Virus record (IMG/VR): IMGVR_UViG_3300036045_000010
Span: 1-61,342 of that record
Source: a virus
Taxonomy: Duplodnaviria; Caudoviricetes
Length of the DNA stretch: 61,342 bases
Reading direction: 5' to 3' (one strand)
Position numbers and translations under genes: made by a program. Positions 8,216-38,529 of this stretch are shown here, in pieces. Numbering within the stretch: the stretch's first letter is position 1; each line of letters opens with the position of its first letter. Under the pieces are notes generated by a model. The model did no database searches and was not told the DNA's origin. It was given only the letters and a program-made list of their open reading frames with translations.

Positions 8216-8219
8216 ACCA

Positions 8220-9077
8220 ATGACCATTACCGCCAAGAGCATTCTCTCCTCCCGCAACCAGACCACCGGCGTGCGCATCGACACGATGTTGTTGCGCTAC
8301 CCGCGGTTCATCCATGCGGAGTTCATGACGCACCGGGTGTTCTCGCGCAACGCCAGCTCCTCGCGGGCGATTCCGGTCGAGCGCCTGATCCAAGACGTGA
8401 TCGACAACACGGCGATGCCGATCCACTGGGGTAAAAACCAGCCCGGGATGCAGGCGCGAGAGGAGCATGACGCGTCGGTGCGACTCTACATCGGAGACGA
8501 TGAAGATCGGACGCCCGTGGAGGACGAATTTGAACGGCACACGGCTTGGGACTTCGCCCGGGACAACGCCATCAACGTCGCCCGTGCTTTTGCCGCTGCC
8601 GGCTACCACAAGCAGATCGTCAACCGGCTGCTCGAGCCCTTCTCCCACATCAACGTCGTGGTCACCGCGACCGAATGGGAGAACTTCTTCAAGCTCCGCG
8701 ATCACGAGGACGCCCAGCCGGAAATCCGCGCGCTCGCCCAGGCAATGAAAGCGGCGATGAAAGCGGCGACAGTGCAGGCGCTCTCTCCTGGCGAATGGCA
8801 CATACCCTTCATCACGTCTCAGGACCAAATCGACGTTCCCGAGCGCGATCTGCGTCTCGTCTCTGCCGCTCGCGCAGCCCGGACGTCCTATCTCGCCCAC
8901 GACGGGCGCAAGCCCGTTCTCAAAGAGGATCTGGCTCTGGCCCGGAAGCTTCTCTCGGCCGTGCCCATGCACGCCTCCCCGTTCGAGCACCAAGCCATGG
9001 CCATGAAGGACTATCGTTACTGGGCCAACTTCCGCAGCTGGCGTCAGCAGCGCTGGGATCTGGAGAACCCGGCATGA
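8220..9077 (+). CDS. thyX: FAD-dependent thymidylate synthase ThyX
   Basis: EFMTHRVFSRNASSSRAIP, AQPEIR and HASPFEHQA motifs. Confidence 0.92.
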   Translation: MTITAKSILSSRNQTTGVRIDTMLLRYPRFIHAEFMTHRVFSRNASSSRAIPVERLIQDVIDNTAMPIHWGKNQPGMQAREEHDASVRLYIGDDEDRTPVEDEFERHTAWDFARDNAINVARAFAAAGYHKQIVNRLLEPFSHINVVVTATEWENFFKLRDHEDAQPEIRALAQAMKAAMKAATVQALSPGEWHIPFITSQDQIDVPERDLRLVSAARAARTSYLAHDGRKPVLKEDLALARKLLSAVPMHASPFEHQAMAMKDYRYWANFRSWRQQRWDLENPA

Positions 9078-9658: not shown

Positions 9659-9768
9659 CATCTCCCAGCCGGCGGTGGTGCCATAACACCGGCAGCGATG
9701 GGGCGGCAGGATCGTCATACGCCTGGCTCCTTCCCGGCCCTTCTCACGGGTCCGCCTGACGTCGCAAC

Positions 9769-9805
9769 TATGATAGATCCGGGGGAGCGGGCCCCGGATC
9801 TATCA
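9769..9805. promoter_or_regulatory. Rep operator: inverted repeat of the iteron core upstream of rep
   Basis: TGATAGATCCGGGG-N7-CCCCGGATCTATCA; 9769-9784 is the exact reverse complement of the first 16 bp of iteron 1; overlaps a TATGAT -10-like hexamer. Confidence 0.8.
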
Positions 9806-9844
9806 CCCCCTCTGCCCCGGCGCCCTAGCGTAAGAACAAGATTC

Positions 9845-10738
9845 GTGACACGAACCAAGAAGATCCGGGTTCTCGAGCTGGCGCCGTCGGAGCACACGGC
9901 ATCGAAGCCTGCTGAGCTCATCCAGATCCGCGGACACGACGCGCTGTCGCTCACCGCCCGGCGCGCCATCACCGTGCTCTGGCACAACGCCCATCGCCAG
10001 GGCATCGAGGACGGCAAGACCTACCAGATCCAACTCAACCAGCTCACCACCGAGCGGCACAAAGGCCGGGAGAGCGTCGTCGAAACCATCGAGGCGCTGA
10101 TGACCACCCTGCTCGTCGTTCCACTTCCCGGTGGCAAGACCCGGCGCGTCCAGGTCCTCGGCGGCACCGACATGGACAGCCCGGACCGCCCAGGCGGCAC
10201 GCTCTCCTACAGCTTCGACTGGAGGCTCATCGAGATCCTGCGCGACAGCGGCATCTGGGGACGCATCTCCATCCCCACCTTGATGGCGCTCTCTTCGAAA
10301 TACTCGATCTCGCTCTACGAGGCCGTGGCGCAGTGGTTCGGGCTTCGCGGCAAGACCGCGAGCCTTTTCACCCTCGACGAGTTCCGCGCCCTCCTGGGCG
10401 TGCCGTCCGAGGCCTACGCCCTTTTCGGCGACCTCAACCGCATCGTGTTGAAACGGGCCGTGGCGGAGATCAACGCCCTCGCCCTCTTCAACATCGACAT
10501 CCAGCCGCAGAAGACCGGCAAGCAGGTGACGCATCTCCTGCTCAGCTGGTGGCCGAAGACTCCCGAGGAGCAATGGCAGGCCTCGGTCGAGGTCTCTCGT
10601 CCCAAGCCCGGTCGCCGGGCCCGCATCTCCGGCGCCGTCGACCGTCTGGTCGAGCCTGTGGATAACGGGGATAACTCCCCCGAGTCTTCGTCGTCCGTCC
10701 CCGGATCTATCATAAAAGGATCCCCGGATATGTCGTAG
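9845..10738 (+). CDS. repA: plasmid replication initiator (Rep_3 family, rhodobacteral RepA-like)
   Basis: KPAELIQI, LSLTARRAI..L, LSSKYSISLYE, TLDEFRALLGV, LKRAVAEIN, KTGKQV pattern of winged-helix initiators; flanked by iterons; GTG 9845 start inferred (ORF extends back to 9698). Confidence 0.88.
   Translation: MTRTKKIRVLELAPSEHTASKPAELIQIRGHDALSLTARRAITVLWHNAHRQGIEDGKTYQIQLNQLTTERHKGRESVVETIEALMTTLLVVPLPGGKTRRVQVLGGTDMDSPDRPGGTLSYSFDWRLIEILRDSGIWGRISIPTLMALSSKYSISLYEAVAQWFGLRGKTASLFTLDEFRALLGVPSEAYALFGDLNRIVLKRAVAEINALALFNIDIQPQKTGKQVTHLLLSWWPKTPEEQWQASVEVSRPKPGRRARISGAVDRLVEPVDNGDNSPESSSSVPGSIIKGSPDMS
10657..10674 (-). promoter_or_regulatory. DnaA boxes (one perfect, one degenerate)
   Basis: TGTGGATAA (=TTATCCACA) at 10657-10665 followed directly by CGGGGATAA. 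Confidence 0.75.
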
Positions 10739-10784
10739 CAGGCCCCAAATCTATCGCAGCAGCCCCCGAATCTATCATAGGATC
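10699..10784 (+). repeat. four iterons (plasmid oriV)
   Basis: CCCCGGATCTATCATA, CCCCGGATATGTCGTA, CCCCAAATCTATCGCA, CCCCGAATCTATCATA starting at 10699, 10722, 10743, 10764 (spacing 23/21/21 bp). Confidence 0.85.
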
Positions 10785-10861
10785 GGAGCTAGAGGTTCGG
10801 AGCCAAAGGAAAAATCCGCCTCGAATCTCTGAATCCTGAAAGAGAAAGAGAATCTCTCACC

Positions 10862-11200
10862 ATGCTCTCTCCGCTCTCTCTGGACGACCTCCACGATGAC
10901 GAGGTCATCGCCGACGACATCGCCGACGAGATCGAAGCGATCGCCTCGGACGTTTCACGCAAAACGGACGTCGTCGACCAGATCCGGGTACTCAATCGCA
11001 CCGTGAAGCCCCGAAGCCCCCTTACCGAAATTGAAGTGATCCTCTGCGCTGCAGACAAGAATCATTTTTGGATCCAGGCCTATGAAGACGCCGTCGTGAT
11101 CAAGCTCAATCGCTATGGCGTGCGCCTGGTCGAACGCAAACCGCGCAGCGTGATCCTCGAGATGAACGAGACCAAGGCCATCACCTACGATCTGGTCTGA
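10862..11200 (+). CDS. hypothetical protein
   Basis: 112-aa ORF downstream of oriV. Confidence 0.6.
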   Translation: MLSPLSLDDLHDDEVIADDIADEIEAIASDVSRKTDVVDQIRVLNRTVKPRSPLTEIEVILCAADKNHFWIQAYEDAVVIKLNRYGVRLVERKPRSVILEMNETKAITYDLV

Positions 11201-11252
11201 TCTGTCACACCACACCGAACCGAACCAACCAACCGAGAAGCGGAGACGCCTC

Positions 11253-11456
11253 ATGCCGAGATACCGCATCAAGCTGGAACAGTGGGTCCAGGAAGTCGCC
11301 GAAATCGAGATCGAAGCCGATACCTTGCTCGAGGCCCACCAGGCCGCGCTCGATCATCCCGATCTCGACTGGTCCGCCGGCTCCGAAGGAACCTCCGATC
11401 CGGAGGTCGTCTTCCACAAGACGGTCGCGCTCGACCCCGCGATCGAAGAACGCTGA
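11253..11456 (+). CDS. small acidic hypothetical protein (similar to 4551..4772)
   Basis: GGAG RBS; MPRYRIKLEQWVQEVAEIEIEADT. Confidence 0.7.
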   Translation: MPRYRIKLEQWVQEVAEIEIEADTLLEAHQAALDHPDLDWSAGSEGTSDPEVVFHKTVALDPAIEER

Positions 11457-11473
11457 CGCCCTATGGCGGAGAC

Positions 11474-11507
11474 GCAAGGAGGAGGGGCGAACGCCCCTCC
11501 TCCTTGC
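11474..11507. terminator. perfect 16-bp inverted repeat between convergent genes
   Basis: GCAAGGAGGAGGGGCG-AA-CGCCCCTCCTCCTTGC; no U-tract. Confidence 0.6.
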
Positions 11508-11525
11508 TCCCTTAGCTTCGCTCCC

Positions 11526-11891
11526 TCACCCTCCCAGCGGGGCCGCCTGACGCCCCCGCTTCACCGCCTCCCGACGCACTTTCTCGTAGACGTCGAGCAT
11601 CACCGAGAGCATGTCCCCGTTGGTTCGCCGCTCCCGCTGGCAGAGCTCCCGAAACCGCTCGTAGGTCTCCTCGGGCATGCGTACCGACATCTGCACCGTC
11701 GGGTTGGCCTCGTGCCGGCTGCGGCGCCAGGACTTGACCACAGGCTTCCGAAACGTTTCCGGGCCCGGGACGTCGGCGGCATCGGCGGCATCCTCCAGGA
11801 TCTCCGTCTCCGGCGCCTCGAGACCCTCTTCCCCTTCAGGCGCCTTGGGATTGACGGCCTCGGCCAGGGCCTTGAAGTCGAGCTTACGCAT
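11526..11891 (-). CDS. type Ib partition adaptor / centromere-binding protein (RHH-like)
   Basis: Overlaps the parA stop; disordered N-terminus plus C-terminal strand-helix-helix VQMSVRMPEETYERFRELC...GDMLSVML. Confidence 0.75.
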   Translation of the reverse strand: MRKLDFKALAEAVNPKAPEGEEGLEAPETEILEDAADAADVPGPETFRKPVVKSWRRSRHEANPTVQMSVRMPEETYERFRELCQRERRTNGDMLSVMLDVYEKVRREAVKRGRQAAPLGG

Positions 11892-12609
11892 GGCGAACCC
11901 CCTCGCGCTCCTTGGTTCGGGTCTTTCGCTCGGCGCTCCGCCGAGCGATCTTCAGCCATTCCAGCAGCTTCATCAGCTCCTCGGCGAAGAGCTCCGCATT
12001 GCTGATCGCCCGCGCCACGCCCGACACCTCGTTCGGATCCATGTCGTAGAGCGTGCCCCCGAGGTTGTGCAGGGAAGCGATCGCGGTCCGGGCATGCAGC
12101 TCGGTCTCGAACGCCCCCACCCGGTCTCGCACCTGGGCGTTCAACGAGCGCGCCAGGCGCGACTTCACCGCCGCCTGGGTCCGGGCGAACAGGATGCGCA
12201 CCGGAATCTCCCGGCGCGTCGCCTGGCTCTCCAGGCTCACCTGAGCCACGGTCTCGATCGCCGCTTCGGCGTCCTGCTGCTCGTCGCCCATGGGCACGAT
12301 CACCAGATCGCTGGCGCCGATCGCGAAAGCGTTGAGCCGGGTGGCCGCGCCTTCGAGATCGACGAGCACGAACGCCGCCTCTTCCGCCGCCTTCCGGAGC
12401 TCAGCCCGGATGAGCTTTTCTCCTTGGGTGGCCTGCACCTTGAGTCGCCCGGGCAGCCGGGCCTTCTCCGCCCAGGAGAGCAATCTCCCGGCCGGATCCG
12501 CATCGATCAGGATGACCTTGCGCTCGCGCGCAAGCGTGGTCGCCAAAATGATGGCAGACGTCGTTTTGCCCGCGCCCCCTTTCGAGGACGCGAAAGTAAT
12601 GATAGGCAT
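11884..12609 (-). CDS. parA: ParA partition ATPase (short, type Ib)
   Basis: Deviant Walker A SSKGGAGKTT, LIDADP, VLVDLEG, DLVIVP; start at 12609 inferred. Confidence 0.92.
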   Translation of the reverse strand: MPIITFASSKGGAGKTTSAIILATTLARERKVILIDADPAGRLLSWAEKARLPGRLKVQATQGEKLIRAELRKAAEEAAFVLVDLEGAATRLNAFAIGASDLVIVPMGDEQQDAEAAIETVAQVSLESQATRREIPVRILFARTQAAVKSRLARSLNAQVRDRVGAFETELHARTAIASLHNLGGTLYDMDPNEVSGVARAISNAELFAEELMKLLEWLKIARRSAERKTRTKEREGVRHA

Positions 12610-12637
12610 AACGCCATTCTCCAGTTTTCCCACGAAC

Positions 12638-12667
12638 ACGCTGCTTCAACCGCCCCCGGACTGTCAA
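12638..12667 (-). promoter_or_regulatory. putative host sigma70 promoter for parA
   Basis: Perfect TTGACA at 12667-12662 on the - strand; degenerate -10 (CAGCGT) after an 18-nt spacer. Confidence 0.45.
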
Positions 12668-12720
12668 CAAGAAAATCACACCGAACCCAAGCAAACCGAC
12701 CCGCCAGGAGCCTTTTTCCG

Positions 12721-14118
12721 ATGAGTGCTGCTTTTCCGATGCCTGCTGCGGCTTCTGCGAGTAAGCCACCATTCCGCCTGACCCGCGACCAGCAGACCGC
12801 CGTCGACGCCTTTTTCGACTTTCTGTTCACCCCAGCCCGGTGCTTCGGCATCTCCGGCACCGCGGGCACCGGCAAGACCTTCCTGATGGGTCACCTCGCC
12901 GACAAGGTGATGGACCAGTACCAGAAGTCCTGCGCCTTCATCGGCGCCAAGCCCGACTATGATGGCGTCGTCTTCACCGCCACCACCAACAAGGCGGCCG
13001 AGGTCCTGAGCCAGGTGCTCGGCAAGGACGTGCGCACCATTCACAGTTTTCTCAACCTCAAAGTCGAGGAGAATCACCTCACCGGCAAGACCAGACTCTC
13101 GCGCACTCGCCAGTGGAAAATCCGCAACAACCTCGTCGTCTTCATTGACGAGTGCTCGATGATCGACCAGGCGCTCTACGGCGAGATCGTCGCCGCCCTG
13201 CCCGAATGTAAGCTCGTCTTTGTCGGCGACCATGCGCAGATGGCGCCTGTCGGCGAGCACCGCTCCTGCCTCTACGATCATCTGGAGCCGACCGACTTCG
13301 TTACGCTTGTCGAGCCCGTGCGCAACGCCGGCCAGCCCGCCCTGGTGGCGTTGTGCGCTCAGCTTCGCGAGACCGTGGAGACCGGGGTGTTTCGCCCCAT
13401 CGAGCCCGTCGACGGCGCGATCTACTATCTCGACGCCGCGGAGATGAACGAAGGCCTCCACTACTTTTTCCGGGAGCTCGATCCCTCCTGCCGGGTGCTC
13501 TGCTTCACCAATTCCCGGGTCCAGGATTACAACCTCTACATCCGCGAGACCGTGCGCGGTCGTCCTCCCGAACCTGTTCCCGGCGACGTGATGGTGATGG
13601 CCCAGCCCTACGCCAACGGCGCATCCACCATCAGCGTCGAGAGCGAGCTCGAGATCCTCAAGATCGGGGACTCCTACCAGTTCAACGTCTCCCTCGACAA
13701 GAACGGCGTATACCCCATTCTCTGTCGGGACGTCGTCGTGCGTCGCTCCGGGGACCGCAGCGAGATCACGCTACGTCTTCCCGAAGATCCAAGACAGGTG
13801 ACCACGCTCACCAAGCATCTGGCACAGAAGAAAAACTGGAGCGCTTATTTCGACGTCAAGGGGTCCTTTGCGGATCTTCGTCACAAGTCCGCTTGCACGG
13901 TCTACAAGGCTCAGGGTTCGACCTACGACCAGGTCTTCGTAGATCTGAGCAACATCGGCACCTCCTATGACGCCGCCCAGGTGGCGCGCATGCTCTTCGT
14001 CGCCGTCTCCCGCGCCCGCTCCACCGTCTACTTCTACGGCCGGCTTCCCGGACGCTACCACGATTCCCAAGGAGAGGCTCTATGGGCCGCACCCGCGCCG
14101 CCAGCTCCCCCTGCCTGA
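12721..14118 (+). CDS. Dda/RecD-like SF1 DNA helicase (N4 gp37 homolog)
   Basis: GTAGTGKT, TATTNKAA, IDECSMI, VGDHAQ, TVYKAQGST, VAVSRA; AGGAG RBS before 12721. Confidence 0.92.
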   Translation: MSAAFPMPAAASASKPPFRLTRDQQTAVDAFFDFLFTPARCFGISGTAGTGKTFLMGHLADKVMDQYQKSCAFIGAKPDYDGVVFTATTNKAAEVLSQVLGKDVRTIHSFLNLKVEENHLTGKTRLSRTRQWKIRNNLVVFIDECSMIDQALYGEIVAALPECKLVFVGDHAQMAPVGEHRSCLYDHLEPTDFVTLVEPVRNAGQPALVALCAQLRETVETGVFRPIEPVDGAIYYLDAAEMNEGLHYFFRELDPSCRVLCFTNSRVQDYNLYIRETVRGRPPEPVPGDVMVMAQPYANGASTISVESELEILKIGDSYQFNVSLDKNGVYPILCRDVVVRRSGDRSEITLRLPEDPRQVTTLTKHLAQKKNWSAYFDVKGSFADLRHKSACTVYKAQGSTYDQVFVDLSNIGTSYDAAQVARMLFVAVSRARSTVYFYGRLPGRYHDSQGEALWAAPAPPAPPA

Positions 14119-14594: not shown

Positions 14595-14600
14595 CCCCTC

Positions 14601-27609: not shown

Positions 27610-30600
27610 TTAGAGAACCAACGCGCCCACCGGATGCAGGGTCGGCGAGTTGAGGCCCATTTCCGGGCCGAACGCATAGCCGAGCCGGCCGTCCAACGCG
27701 CTTCCGAGCGCCGAGCCGTCCCAGATGGTCTGCACTCCGAGAAGCGCGTCCCCGCCGGCGAACATGGTCATCGCCGACAAAGGCCGCTCGCGCAGCGTGC
27801 GCGCCACCACCGGCAGGATCCGCAGCTTGTAGTTCAGGAACCACGCGAGACCCATGGATTCCAGGAGATCCCGCGACCGTCCCGCCAGGCGGTTGTAGGG
27901 CACGAACTCTTCCATAATCCTGTCGAGCGCGGCTTCCCGACTCATTCCTCGCGTTTTCGTGAGATGGTCGTAAAGCACGGCTTTGGCGATGAAGTCGCCG
28001 TACTGCACCCCCTTGATCAATCCCTGATACAACGCCGTGTCCTTGGTGATCGCCAGGTTCTTGGCCACGGTCTTCGCTGTTTCCGGCAGACGATCGGCCG
28101 CCCAAGAAAAAAACTCTCCGAGCTTGCCGTTGCGGATCGCGATGTCGGCCTCGTCGAGTCCTTCGGCGATGGTGTTGAGCTCTCCCGCTTCCAAGAGCGG
28201 CTGGATCGACAGCTTGCTATTGGCCGCCTCCAGGAGCTCCACCCGGGTCTCGAGCCGCCGCATCGCCGCTGGATTCTTCAGAACTCCGGCCATCTGCACT
28301 TGGAGCTTCTGGATCTCCTCGCGGTTCTGAACGTAGGTCGTCACCTCCGCGAACTTGTTCCGCGATCCAGAAAGCACGTCGGAGATCGGCACTCCCACCA
28401 CCAGAAGGTGCGCCACGTTAGAGAGCACGTTCTGCACCGTGACCACCAGCGAGCGCACGATGATCGTCTCCTTGGCCCAGGCCACGCCCTCGCGCAGGAT
28501 CCGATCGCCCTGGCGCAGCCGCTTGAAGGCGTCGTTGCCGGCGATGAGCTCGGCCACCTTGCGCATCTTGGCTTGAGTCTCCGGCGACCAGCGGCTCACG
28601 CCGGTCCAGGGATCGGTCACGGTCGCCTGGCGAAAGCCGATCGCGTCGTCGACCATGTCCTGACGCACCCAGAACTCGCCCTGGCCGAAGGCGTCTTCGA
28701 TGTCACGCCGCATCCGCCACCCCATGGTGGCGAATGCGTCGCGCACCACCGGATCCTTTTGCTTCGGATCGGCCACGTTCACGAAGCCTCTCAGCTCACC
28801 GTTCTTTCGGGCCTGGTCGTAGATCCCTTTTAAGGTCTCGACCAACTCCTGGTTCACCTTGTCCGCGAGCTCCTCCTCCAGGATGCGGCCGACCCAGACC
28901 CCGAGCATTCGGCCCAGATGATCGTCCTTTTCCACCAGCGCGGTCTTCTCGGGATCCATGGTTCTCTCGTAGGCCGCGACGTTCCCCCCTTCGTCGAAGA
29001 TCGGCCGCAGATACTCTCCGGGCTTCAGACCGTCCAGGGAGCCCGGAGACGCCCGTCGCAGCTTTTGGGCGATGCGGGATACGCCGGCGCCAAGCAGCGT
29101 CCCTGCGGACGTCCCATCGAGCGTCAGGCCCGATCGGGCGTCCACGCCTTGCCAGGTGTCGTTCACCGTCTGGGCGACGCCCTGACGGAAAGCCCCACGC
29201 CCAGTCACCGTGCTCTGATAGTAGGCGAGGGGTTCACGAGCCATGTCGTTCCCGTCGCCTCGGTAGACGCCGATCTGCACATAGCCCCGGCTCAAGAGAT
29301 CGTCGTGGTCCTTGACCGGACGCACGACGACGGCATGCCCTTCTTTGGGCGTCGCCGGCGCATAGCCTTTCCAGCCGTTGTGCAGCGCCACCCGGTTGAT
29401 CCCGCCATGCCGATCTCGGCGCGTGATCTCCGAAGCCCGGGCGACGCGCAAAAAGCCGGTGACCGCCTGCAGGCCTTCGGGCTCGACCGCAGCCAGCTTT
29501 CCCAGCTGATCCCTGGTCGCCTGATCCGTCTCCATCCAGGCATAGAGGCTGGTCAGCCGATCGATCATGCTCACGACATCGTCGCTTGGAGTGAGCGCCT
29601 TGCCTTTCGACAGAGCTTCTCCGAGCAGATGCGCGATCGCATAAGCGTTAGCCAACAGGTTCTGCGACGTGTTTCGTCCAGTCGTCATGTAGACGGCCAG
29701 CGCCTTCGCTTTGCTCATGTACCGACCGGCGAGCCCGCTTCCCACTTCCTTGTCGAGCTGGGCCTCGAGCTTGCGAATCTCGCGCTGAGCCCAGCGCGGA
29801 TCGCCCAGGAGCGCCAGCGTCGCTTCGTGCCCAAGCGCCAGCAGATCCGTTTTGGCGAGGCCTCGATGCATCGCGCTCCAGATCTCGGGCTCGAGGCGTT
29901 TCGTGAAAGCCGCGGCGAGATGCCGCGGGATGCCTTCGCGGCTGTCCTGGCGCATGCTGTCGATCTTGGCCTTGGCCGGATTGATCAGCCGCCACAGCGG
30001 CGCGTTGTCGTCGTTCATGCCGCGCACGTCGGTGTAGAGGCTGCGCAGGGTGTGCCAGCCTTCGGCGTCGTTGAGCATCTTCGACAGCGCCGCTCCGGTG
30101 GCGTTCGCGGTTTCGCTCGAACCAAGGGATGCGGCGTACTGGAGCGTCTGAATCAGCCCCCGCACCGGCTTGGAGGCGTCCCGCCGCTCCGCCGCCTGGC
30201 CCATTTCGTTCAGAGCTTCGGTCGCCTTCTTGGCTCCCGTGGAGATCTTCTCGGCCACGTAAGCGTTAGCCGCTTCGACACCTTGACCAAAAAATCCCGA
30301 CATTTCCTGGAGTTGAGCAAGCCCAAACCGCGACCGCTCCACCGCGGTCAGCGCGCCAGAGAGCGCGTCGAGCTCGGCCCCCATGTTTTCCTTGGTCAAC
30401 CGCGGCGACAGCGACAAACGGGTGATGAGGTTGACCAACGCCCGGCCAAGGCTCTGCATCCAGGCGTCCACCGAGTTCCAGCGCAGCTCCACGGTCCGCG
30501 GCGGCTTCATCGAACCAAGGATCGCCCGCATCAGCGGACTGGTCTGGGACAGTCCCAGAAACGCCGCCAGCTGATCGCCCCCTTGTTTCCCGCTTTCAGC

Positions 30601-33600
30601 GAAAAACGCCGTCACCTGTTTCGCTCGAAGCTGTTGCGCCGGCGTCGCTTCGTTCGGCGTCTCCACTCCCATGGCGCGCAACACCGTCTCGGGACTCAGC
30701 ATCGTCGCCACGTGATTCAGCGCTTCCTCGATATGGCGCCGCACCGGCTTGCCGACCGCCAGACCCGACGAAGCCGCGGCGTAAACCGCCTCGAACGCCG
30801 AGAGCTCTCGAAAATTCAACTCCAGTCCGTACGCTGCCGCACGCGCAGCCATCTGCCGCGCTTCGAGGATCTTAGCGCTGATCCGTCCCCGAGCCGCTTC
30901 CGGGGTCGTCTCGGAGATCATGCCCCGCAAGAGGTTGGCGAGCCTTCCCAGATAGAGATTCTCCACTACGTTGAGCCGAGAATCCTCGCCGTAGACTTGC
31001 TCGAGCGCCCGCGTCGCCTCGTCCCGGATGAGAGCCGCATCCCACGCAGGCTCCTGCGCCAGCAGGAGCCGCGCGTTGAACCGGACGTTGGAATAGAGCG
31101 TCGCTCCCGGCGCGCCCTTGATCCCCAGAAGCCGCTTGATCCACCGCATCGCCTGGGACACCACGCTGGTGAGCCCCTGGTAGCTCGGTGTCGTCTTTGT
31201 CTTGGCGATCAGTCCGGGATTGGACAGAACGTAGGAGACGAATTCTCCAATCTGGCTTGCTCGATCCCCTTCATAACCGCGCACGATGCTTTGCAACACG
31301 CGCAACGCTTTGGCGTCCGGCGCGTTCAGGCCGAACGTGGTGAGCTCCATCGCGTCCGCCATCAGCTTCTCCAGTTGAGACACCGCATGTCTCACGTGGG
31401 GAGCGGAACTCTCAGGAGCCTGGTAATGATCGACGAGGATCCGGTCGGTGTAGAGATGCAGCAGCTCGTGCAACGCCGTCTCAGGCGCCATGTTCGCCAC
31501 GTAGACGAGATCCGACGGGCCGCCCATGATCGATTGACCGAGTTGGAGCGCGCCTCCGGCGTAAGCCTCGCCCTGGGAGTCCCGATGTGGGACCAGAGCT
31601 TCGGTGGAACCAAAAAAGACTCGAGCCGTCGCAGGCAGCTCCCCAAGCGTCGCAAGCTCCTTCGCGAGACTTTGCTGCTCGACCGTGGCGCCGGTGGCCG
31701 CGACGGGGCCTTGCAGGAGCCGCATCAGCTCCCGCGCCGAGACCTCGATCAGTTCGGGATGCCCGTCCACCGCCTGGCCGATCTGGCGCAGAGACGCCTC
31801 GAGCTCCGCAGTCGGCGCCTGCGCATAGCCCGACGCGGTCTCGCGGGGAGAAGACCCGGCCGCCGCCGACGCCTCGATCTGGGTGAGCTCCTCGACGTAG
31901 AGCCCGTTCAGCATGGCGGCGACGCCGCCGAAGTCGGTGGGGTCTCCGGAGAGCAGAGCCTTGCCTTCCTGGAAGCTTGGCTCCTGGGCCCCGGCCATGT
32001 GGTCGGCGGAGATCCCGGCCCGCTTCATCACGGCGACCCGAGCGGCGCGCTCCTGCGCCGCCAGCTCCAGCGTCTGATCGAAGCTCTGGAGCACGTCACG
32101 CAGATCGCCAACGACCTTGTACCGCTTGCCCAGCATCGCAATGCGCTTCTGGACCGAGACGGGTAGCGTCGCAATCCGTGCGTCCGAGAGCTGGGCCAGC
32201 ATCGTCGCGAAGCCCTTGCGCACGTCCCGATAGGGATTCGCCGCCTGCCAGGCGGCGAAGGTCTGGGCGTTGATTTGCCGCGAGGCCTCCCCGATCACGT
32301 CGAGTCCCATCTCCACGCCGTCGAAGACCGGGAGACTGGTCTCGAAGACGTCGGTCCCTTTGGTGTAGATGTTGAGGATCATCCGGCCGTCGCCGTTGCC
32401 GATGGTCAGGTACGGCGAGACCTTCACGCTGGCGTCCGCCGGCGCCACATAGGTGGCCACGGCCTTCAGCCGTCCGGTGAAGCTCGTGGCTACCGTCACG
32501 TTCGGGTCGTTCGTCTTTTCCGGCGCCGAGATGTGGAACTCCTGCACGTCGTTGCCGTAGATCGGCGCGAGCTTCATGGTCTCGGCGAAGACGTCGCGCA
32601 CCTCCTGCTCGGAGAGCAACGCTTTGGCGATCTTGCGCGGCTTGCGGCCTTCGGCCGCCGCCGCTTGCTTTTCCGCCTCCCGCATCGGCTCCAGCGTCGC
32701 GTCTTTCGCCGCCTGGGCCGTGGCGACCTTCTCCTGGAACGTGGCCTGGAAGACCAGAGTCTGGATCTCCGCGGCCGCCTGGAGGAACTTCATCTTGCCC
32801 TGGAGCCCGCCGGTGGTCGCGTCGATCGCCTCCACCATCGGCTCCACGAACTCCGCGAGGATCCGCTCCCGAAGCGCCGTCTGCATCTTGGGAGTGAACA
32901 CCGCTTCCTGGGGCTTCTTCAGCCAGGTCTCGAGCTGACTCATGTTTCCCGAAAAGAGCACCTCCGCCAGATCCCCCAGGAGTTCCGGGTTCTCCAAGAG
33001 CAGCGGATGCTCACGGATCCGCAGGCCCTTCTTGTCGTTCGCGATCAGCTCGGAGAGGAACTCCCCGATGCTTTCCTCGACCTGGCGCGCCACCTTGCCC
33101 GCAATGCCCGCGTCGCCCGAACCATAGAGGAAGACCGTCAGCGGGTTCTTGATGACGTTGCGTCCGACCAGCGCCTCTTTGGTTTTCGTCCCCTTGGCGG
33201 CGTCCTTCAGCTCGAAGGCAGGTAGGAACGCGTCGAGCACGCCGAGCGTCCCCAGCGACCCAGACGACCCAGACGAGGTCTTGGCTGCGATCGCCGCATT
33301 CAGCCCCAGCTCGAACCGAGCCGCGGCCATGTGGTAGATGTCTTCGCCGCCCTTGCCTTCGAGCGCGATGTAATCCGCCAGCGAGGTCGGCCGGTCACGG
33401 AAGAAGAGCCCGCCCTTGGCGAACAGCTCCAGCTCCTCGGGACGGAATTCCCCCATCCCCATGTGGATCATCGCGTTCACCGGGCCGTCGGTCTTGCCGT
33501 CGGCCTCCAGCGCCAACGCCGTCTCGAAACGCTCGGCTCCATCCCCACGAGCCACATTGAAGCGCGCCACGGTCAGGAGCGCATGCAATCCTTTCGTGGA

Positions 33601-36600
33601 GATCGCTCCGCCGACGCTCGCCGCGAAGGCCTTCGGATCGAGCCTTCCCGCCCGCTCGAACCCCTCGAGCAGCTTCACCGCCTCGCCGTAGCTCTCGTAT
33701 ACGTGGCGCTGCGCCTTGACCGGGATGTCGTCCCGGGACATGCGCTCGATCTTCAGATCCAGGGCCTGGGCCACCGCCGCCCAGAGCGCCCATTCGTGAC
33801 GGTCGGCGTTCGGCCCCGTCAGCTCCAGCGTCGCGTTGGTGCTCGAGATCAGCTCGCGGGCGATCTTGGAGCCCTGCGGCGTCACCGGGCCCTGCTGCTG
33901 CAAGCGCCCGACCGAGCTCACTCCCCAGGCAAAGCGGATCGGCACGCCGGCGGCGCCGGTTTCCGGCGACGCCAGGCGCTCGACCTCCTCCACATAGGCC
34001 AGCGTCTCGTCCAGGTCGTGCTCGATGGTCTGGTTCCGACCCTCGATCGATAGCAGGTGCATCGGGTTGTGGTTTGCCCGCGTCTCTTCCGTCAACGGCA
34101 CGTAGCCCTGGAGCGCCTTGTAGGCGTCGAGCCCCAGCGCTCGAACCAAGGCCACCATGGGGACGTTGACGAACGCCGGCATGGCCTGAAGCCGCTCCAC
34201 CGCCTGGATTTCCTGGCGGGAAAGCCGAGCCAGCCGGTTGTGCATCCGGGTCTGGCTCGGCGCTCCGGGCAGCACGCCTTCGCCGATGAAACGGTCACGC
34301 ACGCGCCCTTCGGTCAGCCGCTCGGTAAAGGGGGCGCGCAGCTTCACCAAAACCTGGAAGTCCGGGTTCTCGGCAAACTCTGGGCGCACCTGGAGCACCA
34401 TGGCCTGATGCGGCGCGCCGTCCTTCACGTAGCGCGCCATAGTCCAGGCGAGAATGCGCGGCTCCGTCACCGCGCCGTTCTCACCTTGCACGTCCATCAG
34501 GAGCTCGAGCGCGTTGACCGCCACCGAACGCAGAAGGCCTTGGCTCAACCGAATGTCGGCGCCGCGCTTGGGCTGGAGATCAAGAAGCCGCAGCATCGAG
34601 GCGGCGATCGCCTCCTGGGCCCCCATCTGGAGATGCCCTCCCAGAAGCGCCGCTTCGAGCTCGCGCGAGATTGCGTCGCCCCGCGACAGGCCGAGCATGG
34701 CGTTCATGTCCTCGGCATCGAGCGCTCGGGGCTTCTTCGCGTGCTGGGCGAGCCATTCGAAGGTGGCGAGGAACGCCGCCGCCATCACCTTCGGCTCCAG
34801 ATGCGGCGCGGTCACTCCGTCGTCCACCACCAGGTTGAGAGGCAGGCTCTCGGGAAAGCTCAAAGCCCGGGTCAGCTTCTCGGGCGCGCCCTCGAGACCT
34901 TTTGCCGCCATATGCGCGGCGATCGCCGCCTCCATCTTCTCGACGAACTCAGGGAACCCCCTTCGCAAGATGGCCTGCAGGCTGCGGATCTGTTCGCTAG
35001 GCAGGCCGCTCATTTCCAAGTCTTGATCGAGCCACTCGATCGGATCGGAGGCCTCCACCAGACGCGAGCCGTTACCCGCCGATCGAAAAGCCCCCAAAAG
35101 CGCCTGCTTGCCCTCCCAGTTCCGCGGCAAGCCCTTCTTCAACCGTTCAAACCAAACGTCTCCGGCGGAAGCGTCTTCGGTTTCCGTCGCCGGCGCATCG
35201 GTCTCGGCGTTTTCAGTTTCGACGGCTTCCCGAGCTTCTTTGGGACGCGGGGCGTCTTCGACTTCGGGGACGACTTCGAGAGAGGCTTCGGGAAAAACTT
35301 CGGAGACGGCATCGGGTTTTTCGACCTCCTCGGCCGTCGCCTCCGGCGCGGCCTCGTCGCTGGATTCGGGCTTGGATTTCGCTCGGGGCTTCGTGACCGG
35401 CACCTCACCGCCGAGATCGCGGATCTCGTCGTCGAGCCGTTGCAGCGTCGCTTCCCGCTCAAGCGCCTCACGCTCGGCCTCAGCGTAGTCCGGGCTTTCT
35501 GGATCCACGCCCTTCAGCGCCTTCTCGGCCTTGTTGCGTGCGGCGCGGGCTTTGCGATAAGCGGTGCGCAGCGCTTCGACGCGCAGCTCCCGCCGGCGCT
35601 TTTCGAGCTGGGAGGCAAGCTTTCGCTCGGTCGCCTCCGACACCGGTTTCGGTGCGGGGCGGGGCGTTCTTTTCCGCTGGATCATCCGCTTCGTACGCGG
35701 AGCAGGCTTTTCCGCCGGCTTCGGGCCGCCGATCGCTTTGGCGAGCGCCGGCACCTCTACCGGCGCCACCTCCATGCCAAACTGTTCGGCGAGCACGTTC
35801 ACCAGCTTCGCCGCGGCGGTAGCGTCCGCATGAGCGGCTCGGGCGAGCCCCAGGCTCTTCTCGGACTTGAGGTTCACGAAGACCGCGTCATTGGAGAAGA
35901 ACTGGCCATAGGGCCCGAAGGCCTCGTAACCCACCCGCTTACCGAAGCTCTCCCCCGGGGCGGCCGAGACGTTCATCGCCCCCACCTTATTGGCCAGCGT
36001 CTGGGCGAAGTCGCGCAGGTCCTGAAGCGCGTCCATGGCCTCTTCGTTGCGCCCGCTCAACGCCGCCACCACCACGTTGCCCCGGTGTTCGCGCAGCGAC
36101 GGCAGGTTGTTGCGGCTGTTGCCCCGCACCCGGATCTCTTCGGAGACGATGTCCTGCTGGGAGACGAGATCTCCGGCCCGATACCCAGGGTTCTCTTCTT
36201 CGATCGCCGATTTGGCTTCGGCCGCTTCTTCGAAGATTCGCGCTGCGTCCCGCGCGCCGATCAGCGCCTTCAGCACCGCTTCCGGAATCGCAGCCCCGTT
36301 TTCGCCGTCTTCCTGGTTCAGGACACGCTCGTAGTCTCGAGCGCCAAGAACGGTGGGATTGACCGCGAGCACGGTCTGAAGCAGTCCCGCGACCGCCGCC
36401 TGCATTTCAGGATCGGCTTCCGGATCGGCGATGAGCTCGATGGGCAGAAAAGCGTTCAGATCTTCGGCCGTCAGCTCCTCGATCGTTTCGATCGCCGCCC
36501 TCACTCTCGGCGAGGCCTCGAGCGTCGCGAGGCTCGTCCGCATCGCTTCGAAGCCGTTCCGCACCGGGCTTTCTGCGGGCAGCGCCTCCACATAGGCGAC

Positions 36601-38529
36601 GATCTCCGAAGCGCCGATCCGGCGCATCGCCTCCAACTGCTGGAGCACGCCCAACGCCATCATGGCCTTGCTCGAGCTCTCGCCCGCAGCCTCGGCCGCG
36701 TCCATCATGTCGGCGGTGAACTCCAACGCCTGGGCCCGGGTCAGCCGGGTATCGGGATTGGTGGCGAGCAATGCGGCCGCGCCTTCATGAACCTGAGACA
36801 GCCCGCTGACGTCGGCCTCGGACGCGTAGAGCCCTTCGTCGATCTTCGACACGATCGCCGTCACGGCCGCGGCGTCAGCCGCGGAGGGGGCGGCGGAGGG
36901 GGTTTCGTTTGGTGCGCCTTGGTTTGGTGTGGCGTCCTCGTTGGAAGGGGCGGTCAAGACAGGTTCGCTCAGAGTCGCCATCAGAGCTTCGCCTGAGGTT
37001 TGGAGCGTGGATCCCGCTTCCGTCCGGGCCTGCGCGCCCACCGGGCTCGAGGCTTCCCGCTCGGCCGCAAGCCGAGCTTCGCGTCGCGTGATCAGATCCG
37101 TGGCCGCTCGACGCCCGGCGCCCAAGGTAGCCGATCCCGCCTGGACCAGACCGTTCATCACGGCTCCCGGCGCTTGCAGCGTCACTCCCGCCGCCACGCC
37201 GCCCAGCATGCCCTGCGCGGCCGCTTCAGCCACGCCTTTGTCGAGATCCCGTTCCAGCCCGATCGCTTGGGCGCCCACATTCGTGGCCAGCTGGGCGTTG
37301 GCTTCCTGGAGCGTCTCCTCGAGACCTTCCCGACCGACGTTGAGCGCGGCTCCGGCCAGGGGAATTCGTCCGCCCACCCGCATCGGATAGGCCACCATGC
37401 CGCCGGCGAGCCGACCGGCCGCCAGAGCGCCCGGAGCCGCGGCGACACCCGCCACGGATCCCGCTTCCCTGGCCAGACGCATCTGCGCTTCCTCGTGGCT
37501 CAGACCGTCGGTCCGCAGCGCCTGGTAGGCCGGGCTCTGCCCCAGGCTCGTCTCGTCCTGGCCAAGAATGTCGAGTTGCGCCTGGTTGACCGCGCCGCCG
37601 GTCTCGGCCACGCCGGCCACCACCGGCGCCACCCGCAGCGTCGAGGCCTCCAGAAGCGCCCGACCCTCCGCGGTCTGCAGGCTCGCCTCCGCCGCCTGGT
37701 CCGTCAGTCCCCGACGCCGCAGCTCTTTCAGCGCCGCAGCCTTGCCCAGAGCTCGAGCGCCGACCGCCATCGGGATCATCGAGCCGATCGCCTCGGGCGC
37801 CAGCGAGCCTAGCATGATCGGATCGTCGGCGTAGTTTTCCACCGTTTCGGCGAACCCTTCACCCCAATTCACCAACGTCGGGCGGATCGCCCGATCCCAG
37901 GCGGAAGGTTCATTTTTCACGGCTTCGCGTCGAGCCGCGTCCCGCGCTTCCCGATCCTGGGAGTCGAGCTCGGCTTCCAGCCCGTGCTGCGCCCGACGTT
38001 CCTGCATCAACGGGCTCTGACGGCTCCCGAGCGCTTCTCCGGCCGCATCCAGCGCCTCCGAGGCTCGGGGCGACAGCGTGGTCCCGCTCACCTCGTCAAG
38101 GATGTTGAACCCCAACACCCCGACGCCGCCGGCGGTGTTCACCCCCATACGGACCGCGTCCAGAGCCGCATCCCCCGCCGTTTCGGCGGTCGTGCGTCGC
38201 CGAGCTTTGAGCCCTTCCAGCTCCATCATCGAGCGCGCGTACTCGGCCCGCAACCGCTCGGCCTCGTGCCCATACTTCGCGGCGAAGCTCACCGGATCCA
38301 GTTCGCGAATGTCCTGGATCTCGGGCGCATCGGCGAGCGCATTGCCCTGCAGCTCAGCGGTCGCGATGGTCCGGCGCTCCTCCTCCGTCCCGAGCAGCGC
38401 CATCTTCTGGAGCGCGCGTTCCTGGACCAGCGCTTTTTTGGTCTCCGTCACCGACCCGTCGCCAGCCGGAGCCTTCGTCGGAAGCGGAAGACCCATCCAA
38501 CGGGAGCCCGGAACGATCTGGTCAGCCAT
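27610..38529 (-). CDS. virion-encapsidated RNA polymerase (N4 vRNAP, gp50)
   Basis: 3639 aa; SSVGRLQ, LEADGKTDG (A), RNVIKNPLTVFLYGSG (B), LPVFDG (C); no Cys noticed by eye, as for N4 vRNAP. Confidence 0.96.
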   Translation of the reverse strand: MADQIVPGSRWMGLPLPTKAPAGDGSVTETKKALVQERALQKMALLGTEEERRTIATAELQGNALADAPEIQDIRELDPVSFAAKYGHEAERLRAEYARSMMELEGLKARRRTTAETAGDAALDAVRMGVNTAGGVGVLGFNILDEVSGTTLSPRASEALDAAGEALGSRQSPLMQERRAQHGLEAELDSQDREARDAARREAVKNEPSAWDRAIRPTLVNWGEGFAETVENYADDPIMLGSLAPEAIGSMIPMAVGARALGKAAALKELRRRGLTDQAAEASLQTAEGRALLEASTLRVAPVVAGVAETGGAVNQAQLDILGQDETSLGQSPAYQALRTDGLSHEEAQMRLAREAGSVAGVAAAPGALAAGRLAGGMVAYPMRVGGRIPLAGAALNVGREGLEETLQEANAQLATNVGAQAIGLERDLDKGVAEAAAQGMLGGVAAGVTLQAPGAVMNGLVQAGSATLGAGRRAATDLITRREARLAAEREASSPVGAQARTEAGSTLQTSGEALMATLSEPVLTAPSNEDATPNQGAPNETPSAAPSAADAAAVTAIVSKIDEGLYASEADVSGLSQVHEGAAALLATNPDTRLTRAQALEFTADMMDAAEAAGESSSKAMMALGVLQQLEAMRRIGASEIVAYVEALPAESPVRNGFEAMRTSLATLEASPRVRAAIETIEELTAEDLNAFLPIELIADPEADPEMQAAVAGLLQTVLAVNPTVLGARDYERVLNQEDGENGAAIPEAVLKALIGARDAARIFEEAAEAKSAIEEENPGYRAGDLVSQQDIVSEEIRVRGNSRNNLPSLREHRGNVVVAALSGRNEEAMDALQDLRDFAQTLANKVGAMNVSAAPGESFGKRVGYEAFGPYGQFFSNDAVFVNLKSEKSLGLARAAHADATAAAKLVNVLAEQFGMEVAPVEVPALAKAIGGPKPAEKPAPRTKRMIQRKRTPRPAPKPVSEATERKLASQLEKRRRELRVEALRTAYRKARAARNKAEKALKGVDPESPDYAEAEREALEREATLQRLDDEIRDLGGEVPVTKPRAKSKPESSDEAAPEATAEEVEKPDAVSEVFPEASLEVVPEVEDAPRPKEAREAVETENAETDAPATETEDASAGDVWFERLKKGLPRNWEGKQALLGAFRSAGNGSRLVEASDPIEWLDQDLEMSGLPSEQIRSLQAILRRGFPEFVEKMEAAIAAHMAAKGLEGAPEKLTRALSFPESLPLNLVVDDGVTAPHLEPKVMAAAFLATFEWLAQHAKKPRALDAEDMNAMLGLSRGDAISRELEAALLGGHLQMGAQEAIAASMLRLLDLQPKRGADIRLSQGLLRSVAVNALELLMDVQGENGAVTEPRILAWTMARYVKDGAPHQAMVLQVRPEFAENPDFQVLVKLRAPFTERLTEGRVRDRFIGEGVLPGAPSQTRMHNRLARLSRQEIQAVERLQAMPAFVNVPMVALVRALGLDAYKALQGYVPLTEETRANHNPMHLLSIEGRNQTIEHDLDETLAYVEEVERLASPETGAAGVPIRFAWGVSSVGRLQQQGPVTPQGSKIARELISSTNATLELTGPNADRHEWALWAAVAQALDLKIERMSRDDIPVKAQRHVYESYGEAVKLLEGFERAGRLDPKAFAASVGGAISTKGLHALLTVARFNVARGDGAERFETALALEADGKTDGPVNAMIHMGMGEFRPEELELFAKGGLFFRDRPTSLADYIALEGKGGEDIYHMAAARFELGLNAAIAAKTSSGSSGSLGTLGVLDAFLPAFELKDAAKGTKTKEALVGRNVIKNPLTVFLYGSGDAGIAGKVARQVEESIGEFLSELIANDKKGLRIREHPLLLENPELLGDLAEVLFSGNMSQLETWLKKPQEAVFTPKMQTALRERILAEFVEPMVEAIDATTGGLQGKMKFLQAAAEIQTLVFQATFQEKVATAQAAKDATLEPMREAEKQAAAAEGRKPRKIAKALLSEQEVRDVFAETMKLAPIYGNDVQEFHISAPEKTNDPNVTVATSFTGRLKAVATYVAPADASVKVSPYLTIGNGDGRMILNIYTKGTDVFETSLPVFDGVEMGLDVIGEASRQINAQTFAAWQAANPYRDVRKGFATMLAQLSDARIATLPVSVQKRIAMLGKRYKVVGDLRDVLQSFDQTLELAAQERAARVAVMKRAGISADHMAGAQEPSFQEGKALLSGDPTDFGGVAAMLNGLYVEELTQIEASAAAGSSPRETASGYAQAPTAELEASLRQIGQAVDGHPELIEVSARELMRLLQGPVAATGATVEQQSLAKELATLGELPATARVFFGSTEALVPHRDSQGEAYAGGALQLGQSIMGGPSDLVYVANMAPETALHELLHLYTDRILVDHYQAPESSAPHVRHAVSQLEKLMADAMELTTFGLNAPDAKALRVLQSIVRGYEGDRASQIGEFVSYVLSNPGLIAKTKTTPSYQGLTSVVSQAMRWIKRLLGIKGAPGATLYSNVRFNARLLLAQEPAWDAALIRDEATRALEQVYGEDSRLNVVENLYLGRLANLLRGMISETTPEAARGRISAKILEARQMAARAAAYGLELNFRELSAFEAVYAAASSGLAVGKPVRRHIEEALNHVATMLSPETVLRAMGVETPNEATPAQQLRAKQVTAFFAESGKQGGDQLAAFLGLSQTSPLMRAILGSMKPPRTVELRWNSVDAWMQSLGRALVNLITRLSLSPRLTKENMGAELDALSGALTAVERSRFGLAQLQEMSGFFGQGVEAANAYVAEKISTGAKKATEALNEMGQAAERRDASKPVRGLIQTLQYAASLGSSETANATGAALSKMLNDAEGWHTLRSLYTDVRGMNDDNAPLWRLINPAKAKIDSMRQDSREGIPRHLAAAFTKRLEPEIWSAMHRGLAKTDLLALGHEATLALLGDPRWAQREIRKLEAQLDKEVGSGLAGRYMSKAKALAVYMTTGRNTSQNLLANAYAIAHLLGEALSKGKALTPSDDVVSMIDRLTSLYAWMETDQATRDQLGKLAAVEPEGLQAVTGFLRVARASEITRRDRHGGINRVALHNGWKGYAPATPKEGHAVVVRPVKDHDDLLSRGYVQIGVYRGDGNDMAREPLAYYQSTVTGRGAFRQGVAQTVNDTWQGVDARSGLTLDGTSAGTLLGAGVSRIAQKLRRASPGSLDGLKPGEYLRPIFDEGGNVAAYERTMDPEKTALVEKDDHLGRMLGVWVGRILEEELADKVNQELVETLKGIYDQARKNGELRGFVNVADPKQKDPVVRDAFATMGWRMRRDIEDAFGQGEFWVRQDMVDDAIGFRQATVTDPWTGVSRWSPETQAKMRKVAELIAGNDAFKRLRQGDRILREGVAWAKETIIVRSLVVTVQNVLSNVAHLLVVGVPISDVLSGSRNKFAEVTTYVQNREEIQKLQVQMAGVLKNPAAMRRLETRVELLEAANSKLSIQPLLEAGELNTIAEGLDEADIAIRNGKLGEFFSWAADRLPETAKTVAKNLAITKDTALYQGLIKGVQYGDFIAKAVLYDHLTKTRGMSREAALDRIMEEFVPYNRLAGRSRDLLESMGLAWFLNYKLRILPVVARTLRERPLSAMTMFAGGDALLGVQTIWDGSALGSALDGRLGYAFGPEMGLNSPTLHPVGALVL

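Follow-up and report, generated by a model that had tools for sequence, protein, structure and literature searches.

Organization of the replication locus

The complete IMG/VR virus record IMGVR_UViG_3300036045_000010 (61,342 b, classed linear), the whole of which is referred to here as the window, is by its gene content the genome of a genuine N4-like phage (Schitoviridae). Sequence analysis supports the presence of a complete plasmid-type replicon and a partition operon at 9.77-12.71 kb of the window. A preliminary description, made from the letters of the sequence, had proposed such a combination. The replicon is composed of the following features.

9771-9784 and 9792-9805, unstranded: putative operator, two inverted 14-nt iteron copies separated by a 7-nt gap, forming a perfect inverted repeat
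9845..10738, plus strand: rep, predicted Rep_3 (WH1+WH2) iteron-binding initiator, 297 aa from GTG 9845; the open reading frame (ORF) is open from 9698
10657..10674, minus strand: DnaA boxes inside the 3' end of rep
10699..10779, plus strand: four direct iterons overlapping the rep stop codon, with starts at 10699, 10722, 10743 and 10764 (spacing 23/21/21 nt)
10780..10861, unstranded: A+T-richer spacer with TGAATC repeats and a AAAGAGAA motif, candidate DNA-unwinding element
10862..11200, plus strand: orf112, no assigned function, directly 3' of the putative origin and kept in the nearest relative

The Rep ORF (9698..10738, plus strand) matches both Pfam domains of a Rep_3 initiator above their cut-offs, Rep3_C (E value 2.9e-13; 50.3 bits, cut-off 21.1) and Rep3_N (E value 3e-6; 28.1 bits, cut-off 22.4), in agreement with the preliminary description. 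It has 556 homologues at E<=1e-30, and a sequence search against solved structures gave no significant match. The start of rep had been placed at ATG 9770. This has to be revised, because the homologues begin 4-5 residues ahead of a common KKIRVLEL sequence, and the most likely start is GTG 9845. The inverted repeat therefore falls upstream of the gene, 40-74 nt before the likely start. Both of its arms are identical to the first iteron, and the repeat (9771..9805) is presumed to be the site of Rep autorepression.

The perfect inverted pair and the four phased copies bear out the operator and iterons described earlier. The exact iteron 14-mer has three copies in 61 kb, every one in the rep locus, and when up to three mismatches are allowed six of the nine matches in the window fall there. 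The window-wide total of nine is not above the mean of shuffled sequences (6.2); the signal therefore lies in the clustering and in the exact copies. As for the DnaA boxes that had been noticed, one is perfect (TTATCCACA, 10657-10665), is the only perfect DnaA box of the window and lies 34 nt ahead of the first iteron, while the adjacent box (10666-10674) agrees at only 7 of 9 positions. The spacer at 10780-10861 has a GC content of 48.8% versus 63.7% for the window, and the lowest-GC 60-mer of the 9-13 kb region starts at 10804. The product of orf112 shares 45% identity over 56 aa with an ORF in the same position of locus L028, which belongs to the nearest complete relative; it has no Pfam or PHROG match, and a search of the ESM Atlas (scores <=0.87, TM about 0.5) gave no lead.

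The partition operon and its repeats

The second half of the cassette is encoded on the minus strand, convergent with rep, and comprises the following features.

11203..11240, unstranded: CACACC / AACC repeat cluster A, candidate (centromere-like) binding site of the small partner protein
11474..11507, unstranded: perfect hairpin with 16-nt arms between the convergent units (-41.7 kcal/mol, z -4.99)
11526..11891, minus strand: gene of a small ParA partner, putatively of the ribbon-helix-helix (RHH) type, 121 aa, with an 8-nt overlap between its start and the parA stop
11884..12609, minus strand: parA, small ParF-like deviant Walker-A ATPase, 241 aa, with no N-terminal DNA-binding domain
12655..12712, unstranded: CACACC / AACC repeat cluster B upstream of parA, candidate par operator or centromere

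The most likely start of parA is ATG 12609, behind GGAG. The ParA assignment made earlier is confirmed by Pfam matches to VirC1 (E value 2.9e-19), CbiA (E value 1.5e-12) and AAA_31 and by a PHROG match to ParA-like proteins (E value 1.6e-32). The best matches in the PDB are ParF of the type Ib ParF-ParG system of TP228 (4dzz; E value 3.6e-16) and ParA 5u1g. The Walker A motif KGGAGKT is invariant in 7/7 ParA sequences.

The partner gene lies directly downstream of parA and is translationally coupled to it. Its identification as an RHH protein, also part of the preliminary description, has sub-threshold support from Pfam (RHH_10, E value 7.1e-5, 23.4 bits against a cut-off of 27; RHH_5, E value 2.1e-4) and from a predicted structure. 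The core of the protein is conserved across ten homologues, whose profile gives E values of 0.017 to McdB and 0.15 to Arc when compared with the PDB; searched by sequence against solved structures, the partner has no significant match. The AF2 model consists of a disordered N-terminal tail and a beta-alpha-alpha core, with helices at residues 74-87 and 91-115 and pLDDT of 85-93 over residues 71-110. A flexible tail joined to an RHH-like core is also the layout of ParG of TP228. Foldseek of the model returned no row at E<=0.001, and its top rows, McdB, ParG, CopG and Arc, all have E>1. The partner thus has no significant sequence or fold match to ParG, and its centromere is a candidate.

That candidate consists of the repeats flanking the operon. 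There are just two exact copies of the 11-mer CACACCGAACC, at 11211 and 12677, one on either side of the par operon, and with at most one mismatch there are six matches versus 1.27 expected, a number reached by 0/100 shuffles. The one-mismatch copies outside the cassette (6932, 18436, 36921 and 45809) may be chance matches or further sites of the RHH-type protein. Relatives carry ATCACACC-type repeats and a TGACA hexamer in the same position before parA. The operon had been credited with a TTGACA promoter of its own. The hexamer is present (12661-12666, minus strand) as a -35-like element only; a full promoter was not recovered, as a sigma-70 scan found no full match at either rep or parA.

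The hairpin at 11474-11507 is likely to be a bidirectional terminator or insulator. None of 200 shuffled sequences folds equally well; the hairpin is without a canonical T-run and was not listed by the terminator scan. Between repeat cluster A and the hairpin lies one further gene:

11253..11456, plus strand: orf67, small phage gene with a homologue elsewhere (69977-70165) in the complete relative G005:C1

No match to orf67 was found in the other related loci, and it probably does not belong to the cassette.

An N4-like genome with the cassette in the rII slot

The placement of the window among the N4-like phages and the boundaries of the cassette are given by three further genes.

8220..9077, plus strand: thyX-like thymidylate synthase, left flank of the slot (Pfam Thy1, E value 9.5e-14; homologues in related loci)
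12721..14118, plus strand: N4-type Dda/RecD-like DNA helicase, right flank of the slot (Pfam AAA_30, AAA_19, UvrD_C_2)
27610..38529, minus strand: virion RNA polymerase (vRNAP), the N4-like hallmark, 3639 aa (phrog_2206 'virion RNA polymerase', E value 0, full length)

The window also encodes DNA polymerase, primase, exonuclease, major head protein, portal and large terminase, an N4-type RNA polymerase subunit and ATPase (PHROG), a Sak4-like annealing protein, a single-stranded DNA-binding protein (SSB) and a Holliday-junction resolvase, so that the N4-type replication and structural gene set is present and in N4 order. The closest cultured relatives, judged by the helicase, are rhizobial and agrobacterial Schitoviridae (44% identity). 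N4 and rhizobial Schitoviridae such as Rhizobium phage RHph_X3_15 share with the window the vRNAP, RNA polymerase, helicase, a gp38-like gene, DNA polymerase, exonuclease, primase, Sak4, SSB, capsid, portal and terminase in the same order. The genome had been called intact and N4-like. The second part holds, on the evidence of the vRNAP, polymerase, primase, helicase, capsid, portal and terminase; the first does not, the genome being 83% complete by the CheckV estimate and lacking about 11 kb relative to the nearest complete relative, the 74,951-b contig G005:C1 of a metagenome-assembled genome (MAG).

The gene order in N4 is gp33 (rIIA), gp34 (rIIB), two small genes, gp37 (helicase), gp38 and DNA polymerase. 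The nearest isolate has thymidylate synthase, rIIA, rIIB, three small genes and helicase, whereas the window has thyX, two small ORFs, the cassette and helicase. A tblastn search with rIIA and rIIB of RHph_X3_15 gave a best E value of 3.4 in the window, G001, G005:C1, L005, L006 and L016. A relocation of the rII genes elsewhere in the genome was ruled out by the same null result in the window and the two complete relatives (G001 and G005:C1). These comparisons support the view, already expressed in the preliminary description, that the cassette occupies the slot held by rIIA/rIIB in N4 and the nearest isolates.

Conservation across the clade

A helicase-based scan of IMG/VR returned 16 loci, 12 at 49-53% helicase identity and four distant ones at 24-27%. 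Two of the 12 close loci have less than 470 nt of upstream flank and stand outside the count; the other ten (10/10 testable) have Rep, the RHH gene and ParA immediately upstream of the helicase, and their par operon is encoded on the opposite strand. No cassette was found in the four distant loci, of which only two have an upstream flank. Among about 185,000 species-representative genomes a single clade member was detected, the MAG contig G005:C1. It is collinear with the window at 66-79% nucleotide identity, and its proteins share 64% (Rep), 73% (ParA), 49% (RHH) and 58% (helicase) identity with those of the window. The cassette is also present in at least two metagenome contigs among the matches listed, from a scan by ParA alignment in which 80 loci were kept, five of them closer than 45% identity. 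When near-identical contigs are counted once, the clade comprises eight lineages. The carrier G001 (70,741 b, CheckV 100%) has a terminal overlap of 118 b and G005:C1 one of 32 b; overlaps of this kind are compatible with a circle as well as with collapsed terminal repeats and do not indicate the physical form.

Four iterons at a phase of 21-23 nt follow rep immediately in 7/7 lineages, with a sequence specific to each lineage (those of L008 and L028 were read by eye, as the script chose other seeds). Co-evolution of Rep with its sites would be expected to produce this combination of fixed number and phase with lineage-specific sequence. An inverted iteron copy precedes rep in at least five of seven lineages, namely L005, L006 and L009 (by script) and L008 and L015 (by eye). 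Perfect DnaA boxes stand in the same position in L028 and L006/L007, and the TGAATC...AAAGAGAA motif lies 3' of the iterons in the lineages examined, among them L005, L006, L008, L009 and L028.

The dN/dS values for the pair L008-L015 are 0.041 (Rep), 0.024 (ParA) and 0.066 (helicase) at dS of 0.41-0.72; for the window and L028 they are 0.20, 0.13 and 0.31, respectively. Other pairs agree, some of them being saturated. Of the genes in the region ParA is conserved best, with 64-73% identity across the clade versus 45-61% for the helicase. Judged from these alignments, fixation of the cassette and purifying selection on it extend to the whole clade, and the selection is stronger on Rep and ParA than on the helicase.

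Integrity of the assembly

A metagenome contig that joins phage and plasmid genes might be an assembly chimera, or might record a recent accidental insertion in decay. Two considerations speak for this, namely that metagenome contigs can be chimeric as a matter of prior expectation and that the nearest database relatives of the cassette are plasmid genes. The stretch is held by four sediment-metagenome runs (two samples, two studies), some of which are possibly the source of the contig; no RNA run is listed among them. The left junction is bridged by the Logan contigs X1 record 1 (6000-16000) and X2 record 11 (8461-9805), and the right junction by X1 record 1 and X3 record 21 (11772-16000). 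The bridging contigs of separate runs are free of differences, and each run has a flat depth profile. Moreover, the same arrangement recurs in the 10/10 testable loci, in the MAG contig and in two metagenome contigs at 51-73% protein identity; GC and GC3 of the cassette are like those of the flanks; and dN/dS is 0.02-0.2. A chimeric join at ~9.7 or ~12.7 kb, against which the preliminary description had warned, was looked for and not found. On the strength of the junction-spanning contigs, the recurrence across the clade and the dN/dS values, both chimera and recent insertion were ruled out, and the probability we leave to either is negligible.

Ancestry of the cassette

No match to Rep was found in 50,697 GenBank phage records, while 627 PLSDB plasmids contain one. 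The best come from Paracoccus, Pukyongiella, Acuticoccus, Thioclava and Acidibrevibacterium (54-59% identity). The best plasmid ParAs are those of Roseivivax (60%), Acuticoccus (59% and 56%) and Thioclava p5 (54%). ParA, a small protein and Rep form the annotated replication-partition module of Paracoccus sanguinis pPspOM44, Pukyongiella litopenaei p4 and Thioclava sp. p5, which are 41-45-kb plasmids of cultured hosts. These and other alphaproteobacterial Rep_3 plasmids (Rhodobacterales, Hyphomicrobiales), which we take to be the replicons labelled 'RepB' in the roseobacter plasmid literature, have the same three genes as the window, including the small CopG/RHH partner directly after parA and the Rep_3 initiator; Roseivivax and Acuticoccus plasmids have a related ParA. 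The arrangement and the carrier differ. The plasmids carry parA, partner and rep on one strand (p5, p4) or parA-partner divergent from rep (pPspOM44), whereas the N4-like clade has an inverted par operon that converges on rep, the putative origin lying in between, and the carrier is a phage genome of virulent type and about 70-75 kb rather than a plasmid.

A quick tree of 20 ParA rows groups the eight N4-like ParAs in a single clade (SH-aLRT 98), with the ParAs of another phage type (L003/L049) as its sister group; both are nested among alphaproteobacterial plasmid ParAs. The Rep tree contained 30 rows, 12 from the loci and 18 of 120 listed homologues; the other 102 were excluded because their context was not known. 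It places the seven N4-like Reps on one side of a branch versus nine known plasmid Reps (support 74/98), so that the two groups are not resolved from one another with strong support. These trees are most simply read as one ancient capture with vertical descent thereafter, a reading that has good support from ParA and is not rejected by Rep.

The other phage type is represented by L003 (IMG/VR, 11.6 kb), in which a related cassette of ParA, RHH and Rep, ordered as in the plasmids, occupies positions 1-2200, with four to five iterons upstream of rep. L003 also encodes DNA ligase, primase, PhoH, PNKP phosphatase and a DnaB-like helicase that is 40-44% identical to those of Pseudomonas and Rhizobium siphophages of about 112-120 kb. 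Rep homologues whose longest contig is of N4 size include P0019 (75,254 b), P0079 (73,791 b; assigned by its source to Sulfitobacter pontiacus) and P0090 (68,247 b).

The pointers to a host differ. The plasmid relatives of the cassette point to Alphaproteobacteria, and the single MAG label to Verrucomicrobiota, since G005:C1 (L028, L037-L040) was binned in a MAG labelled uncultured Luteolibacter. A tRNA scan for host inference found no tRNA genes.

Kinship with resident plasmids allows the cassette to be read as a module for interference or takeover, in which Rep, the iterons and ParA would act on resident RepB-type plasmids, or on host DnaA or the nucleoid, through incompatibility, titration or exclusion. 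Rep and ParA are indeed 54-60% identical to those of resident plasmids in the likely host groups, and the cassette takes the place of rIIA/rIIB, which in T4-type phages are exclusion-related genes. However, each lineage keeps four phased iterons, an operator, a DnaA box and an A+T-richer stretch that fit its own Rep, as in a working origin rather than a decoy, and the iterons vary between lineages, so there would be no one common target plasmid. We consider this explanation very unlikely.

Proposed role in phage persistence

The virion genes and the plasmid replication and partition genes occur together on single contigs. We give a slightly better than even chance to the reading that the cassette is a plasmid-derived maintenance module that keeps the phage as a low-copy episome, either as a phage-plasmid or in a long carrier state. 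Episomal persistence is favoured because partition helps only DNA that is inherited through cell division, because iterons hold copy number low and because the lytic replication set has been retained. No integrase and no serine recombinase or resolvase was found in the records searched; any persistence would therefore be extrachromosomal.

According to this proposal, the ancestor of one uncultured Schitoviridae clade would have acquired the cassette from an alphaproteobacterial plasmid and passed it on by vertical inheritance. The rep gene would be expressed by host RNA polymerase, and Rep would bind the four phased iterons at the 3' end of rep. Acting jointly with host DnaA, which would occupy the adjacent box, it would open the A+T-richer stretch and recruit the host replisome for theta replication. 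Autorepression by Rep at the inverted-iteron operator, combined with iteron handcuffing, would keep copy number low, and the copies would be segregated by the ParF-like ATPase and its RHH partner acting on the CACACC-type repeats that flank the par operon. The episome would alternate with productive growth run by the phage's own polymerase, primase and helicase. The exonuclease, the Sak4-like annealing protein and the Holliday-junction resolvase could circularise a terminally redundant genome. We infer all of these activities, i.e., replication and partition, the episomal state, circularisation and the switch between states, from gene content and site architecture.

Several observations weigh against a persistent episome. 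The cumulative GC skew has no inflection at 10.7 kb. In the records searched there were no HTH_3 (XRE) or Peptidase_S24 repressors, in line with the earlier remark that neither integrase nor repressor is visible, and the 28 small or early ORFs of G005:C1 contain no repressor, antirepressor or integrase family (Pfam at E<=0.01, PHROGs at E<=0.001). What those 28 ORFs do match is DUF4326 (E value 2.1e-13), the C-terminal domain of Ribosomal_L12 (E value 1.4e-6) and four weak Pfam families, and among PHROGs RNA polymerase and nucleotide-metabolism families. No recognisable family of lysis-lysogeny control genes was found, novel regulators being possible, and no toxin-antitoxin or multimer-resolution gene was seen. 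The N4-like helicase is absent from 72,556 PLSDB plasmids, where the best match is 28.6% identical, and the pattern scan of about 185,000 species genomes yielded one MAG contig and no isolate carrier. This absence from plasmid and genome collections is weak evidence, as the hosts are probably uncultured. Finally, the lambda O protein uses iterons in lytic replication, so an iteron-binding initiator alone is no proof of a plasmid phase.

Sequencing depth has to be counted on the same side. Over positions 6000-16000 of the window, word depth in run X2 is about 720-1100 (~900x) in a 2,086-M-letter sediment run. Over 61 kb this depth amounts to ~2.7% of the run, so that the phage made up a large part of that sample, with the caution given by the tool that depth is not a copy number. 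A host chromosome of at least 2.3 Mb at equal copy would exceed the run; most of the copies there are therefore not 1-2-copy plasmids. The depth fits productive infection rather than a 1-2-copy plasmid, and is compatible with latency of the phage in other cells. The preliminary description had gone as far as a low-copy extrachromosomal prophage. Its replicon agrees with the homology of the cassette to plasmid modules (54-60% identity); the prophage itself was not borne out by the searches of PLSDB (no carrier), by the species genomes (one MAG contig) or by the depth in X2.

These points might be accommodated if the cassette had a lytic role only. Rep and the iterons would then constitute an early theta origin similar to that of lambda O, and ParA and its partner would position replicating genomes or replication foci, with no heritable episome. 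The very high depth in one sediment run is in its favour, as are the failure to find repressor, integrase, resolvase or toxin-antitoxin genes, the lack of a carrier among PLSDB plasmids, and the related cassette on the unrelated, virulent-looking phage fragment L003, which suggests that such cassettes may serve phages generally. Nevertheless, other N4-like phages replicate without such an initiator by means of the same polymerase, primase, helicase and SSB set, and iteron systems restrain copy number. A ParF-type ATPase with an RHH-type partner and flanking repeats has the makings of a segregation device, for which there is no known need before lysis, and it is ParA that is the most conserved gene of the region. 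On this evidence we regard a purely lytic role as fairly unlikely.

A more specific form of the episomal reading concerns the way in which latency might be entered. Early transcription in Schitoviridae depends on the injected virion RNA polymerase. Because N4-type early promoters are readable only by this virion-delivered enzyme, a genome that stalls, e.g., in a starved cell, would be silent by default, and the cassette, driven by host polymerase, could carry it through divisions until the transcriptional cascade resumes. Repressor-free episomal latency of this kind across a Schitoviridae clade is an unlikely proposal as yet, and we offer it tentatively.

Other features of the genome

The DNA polymerase of the window is split into at least three pieces (14601-16514, 16671-17267 and 19237-19989), the first of which ends in C-terminal residues that look intein-like by eye. 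Between the pieces lie an HNH endonuclease gene (17176-17949), small ORFs and a dNMP phosphatase gene, and GC falls to 0.575 at 16-18 kb. The polymerase is in two ORFs in the complete relative G001 as well. The large-terminase ORF (59051-61342) encodes at least 763 aa and runs off the window end, as compared with 554 aa in the nearest relative; its halves are matched separately by PHROG terminase profiles, which suggests an insertion, possibly an intein. An A+T-rich spot follows the RNA polymerase gene at 1491-1600, with 60-mers down to 23% GC (genome 64%), and could be a promoter cluster or another origin-like site. G001 contains at 5527-9408 an ORF of 1293 aa, opposite in strand to its neighbours, which together with adjacent ORFs has no counterpart in the window.

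Relation to known phage-plasmids and significance

The P1, N15 and SSU5 groups of phage-plasmids likewise combine a plasmid initiator with its origin and a ParA-type partition system beside separate lytic replication functions. Those groups are temperate, have repressors and are found as plasmids in isolates, whereas neither a repressor nor an isolate carrier was found for the clade of the window. For P1, the plasmid initiator and partition genes beside lytic replication functions are described in PMC10983915. The same source treats crAssphage (Carjivirus communis), of a podovirus lineage long taken as non-temperate and without integrase, as a proposed extrachromosomal phage-plasmid (PMC10983915, bioRxiv 2024). 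crAssphage has RepL genes and toxin-antitoxin, in contrast to the Rep_3 initiator with iterons and the ParF/RHH pair described here, and the claim is based on culture and expression data, while the present clade is known from sequence alone. The Rhizobium siphophages B1VFA and V1VFA-S (roughly 118 kb; parA, parB, repC) are credited with 'phage-plasmid-like features' in their description (PMC12509600), which would make them, like the clade of the window, alphaproteobacterial phages with maintenance genes common on host plasmids. Neither matches the Rep of the window, and neither is among the ParA matches listed.

A literature search, whose coverage stopped short of subscription journals and supplements, turned up no earlier description of a phage-plasmid, an iteron replicon or a ParA/Rep cassette among N4-like phages or Schitoviridae. 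Phages with plasmid replicons are already known; what is probably new is the N4-like backbone, the lack of a recognisable switch and the fixation across a clade. N4-like phages are treated as obligately lytic, are favoured for that reason in phage therapy and biocontrol, and figure in marine and sediment ecology purely as predators. If the episomal reading is true, an N4-like clade would have a hidden persistent phase, and would constitute a new group of phage-plasmids on a backbone never linked to lysogeny. Should repressor-free latency also prove to be true, it would be the first temperate-like lifestyle among N4-like phages and a new, repressor-less mode of latency. Genome-based prediction of lifestyle would be affected, as neither an integrase nor a repressor was found, and the cassette would bear on gene flow between alphaproteobacterial plasmids and virulent phages.

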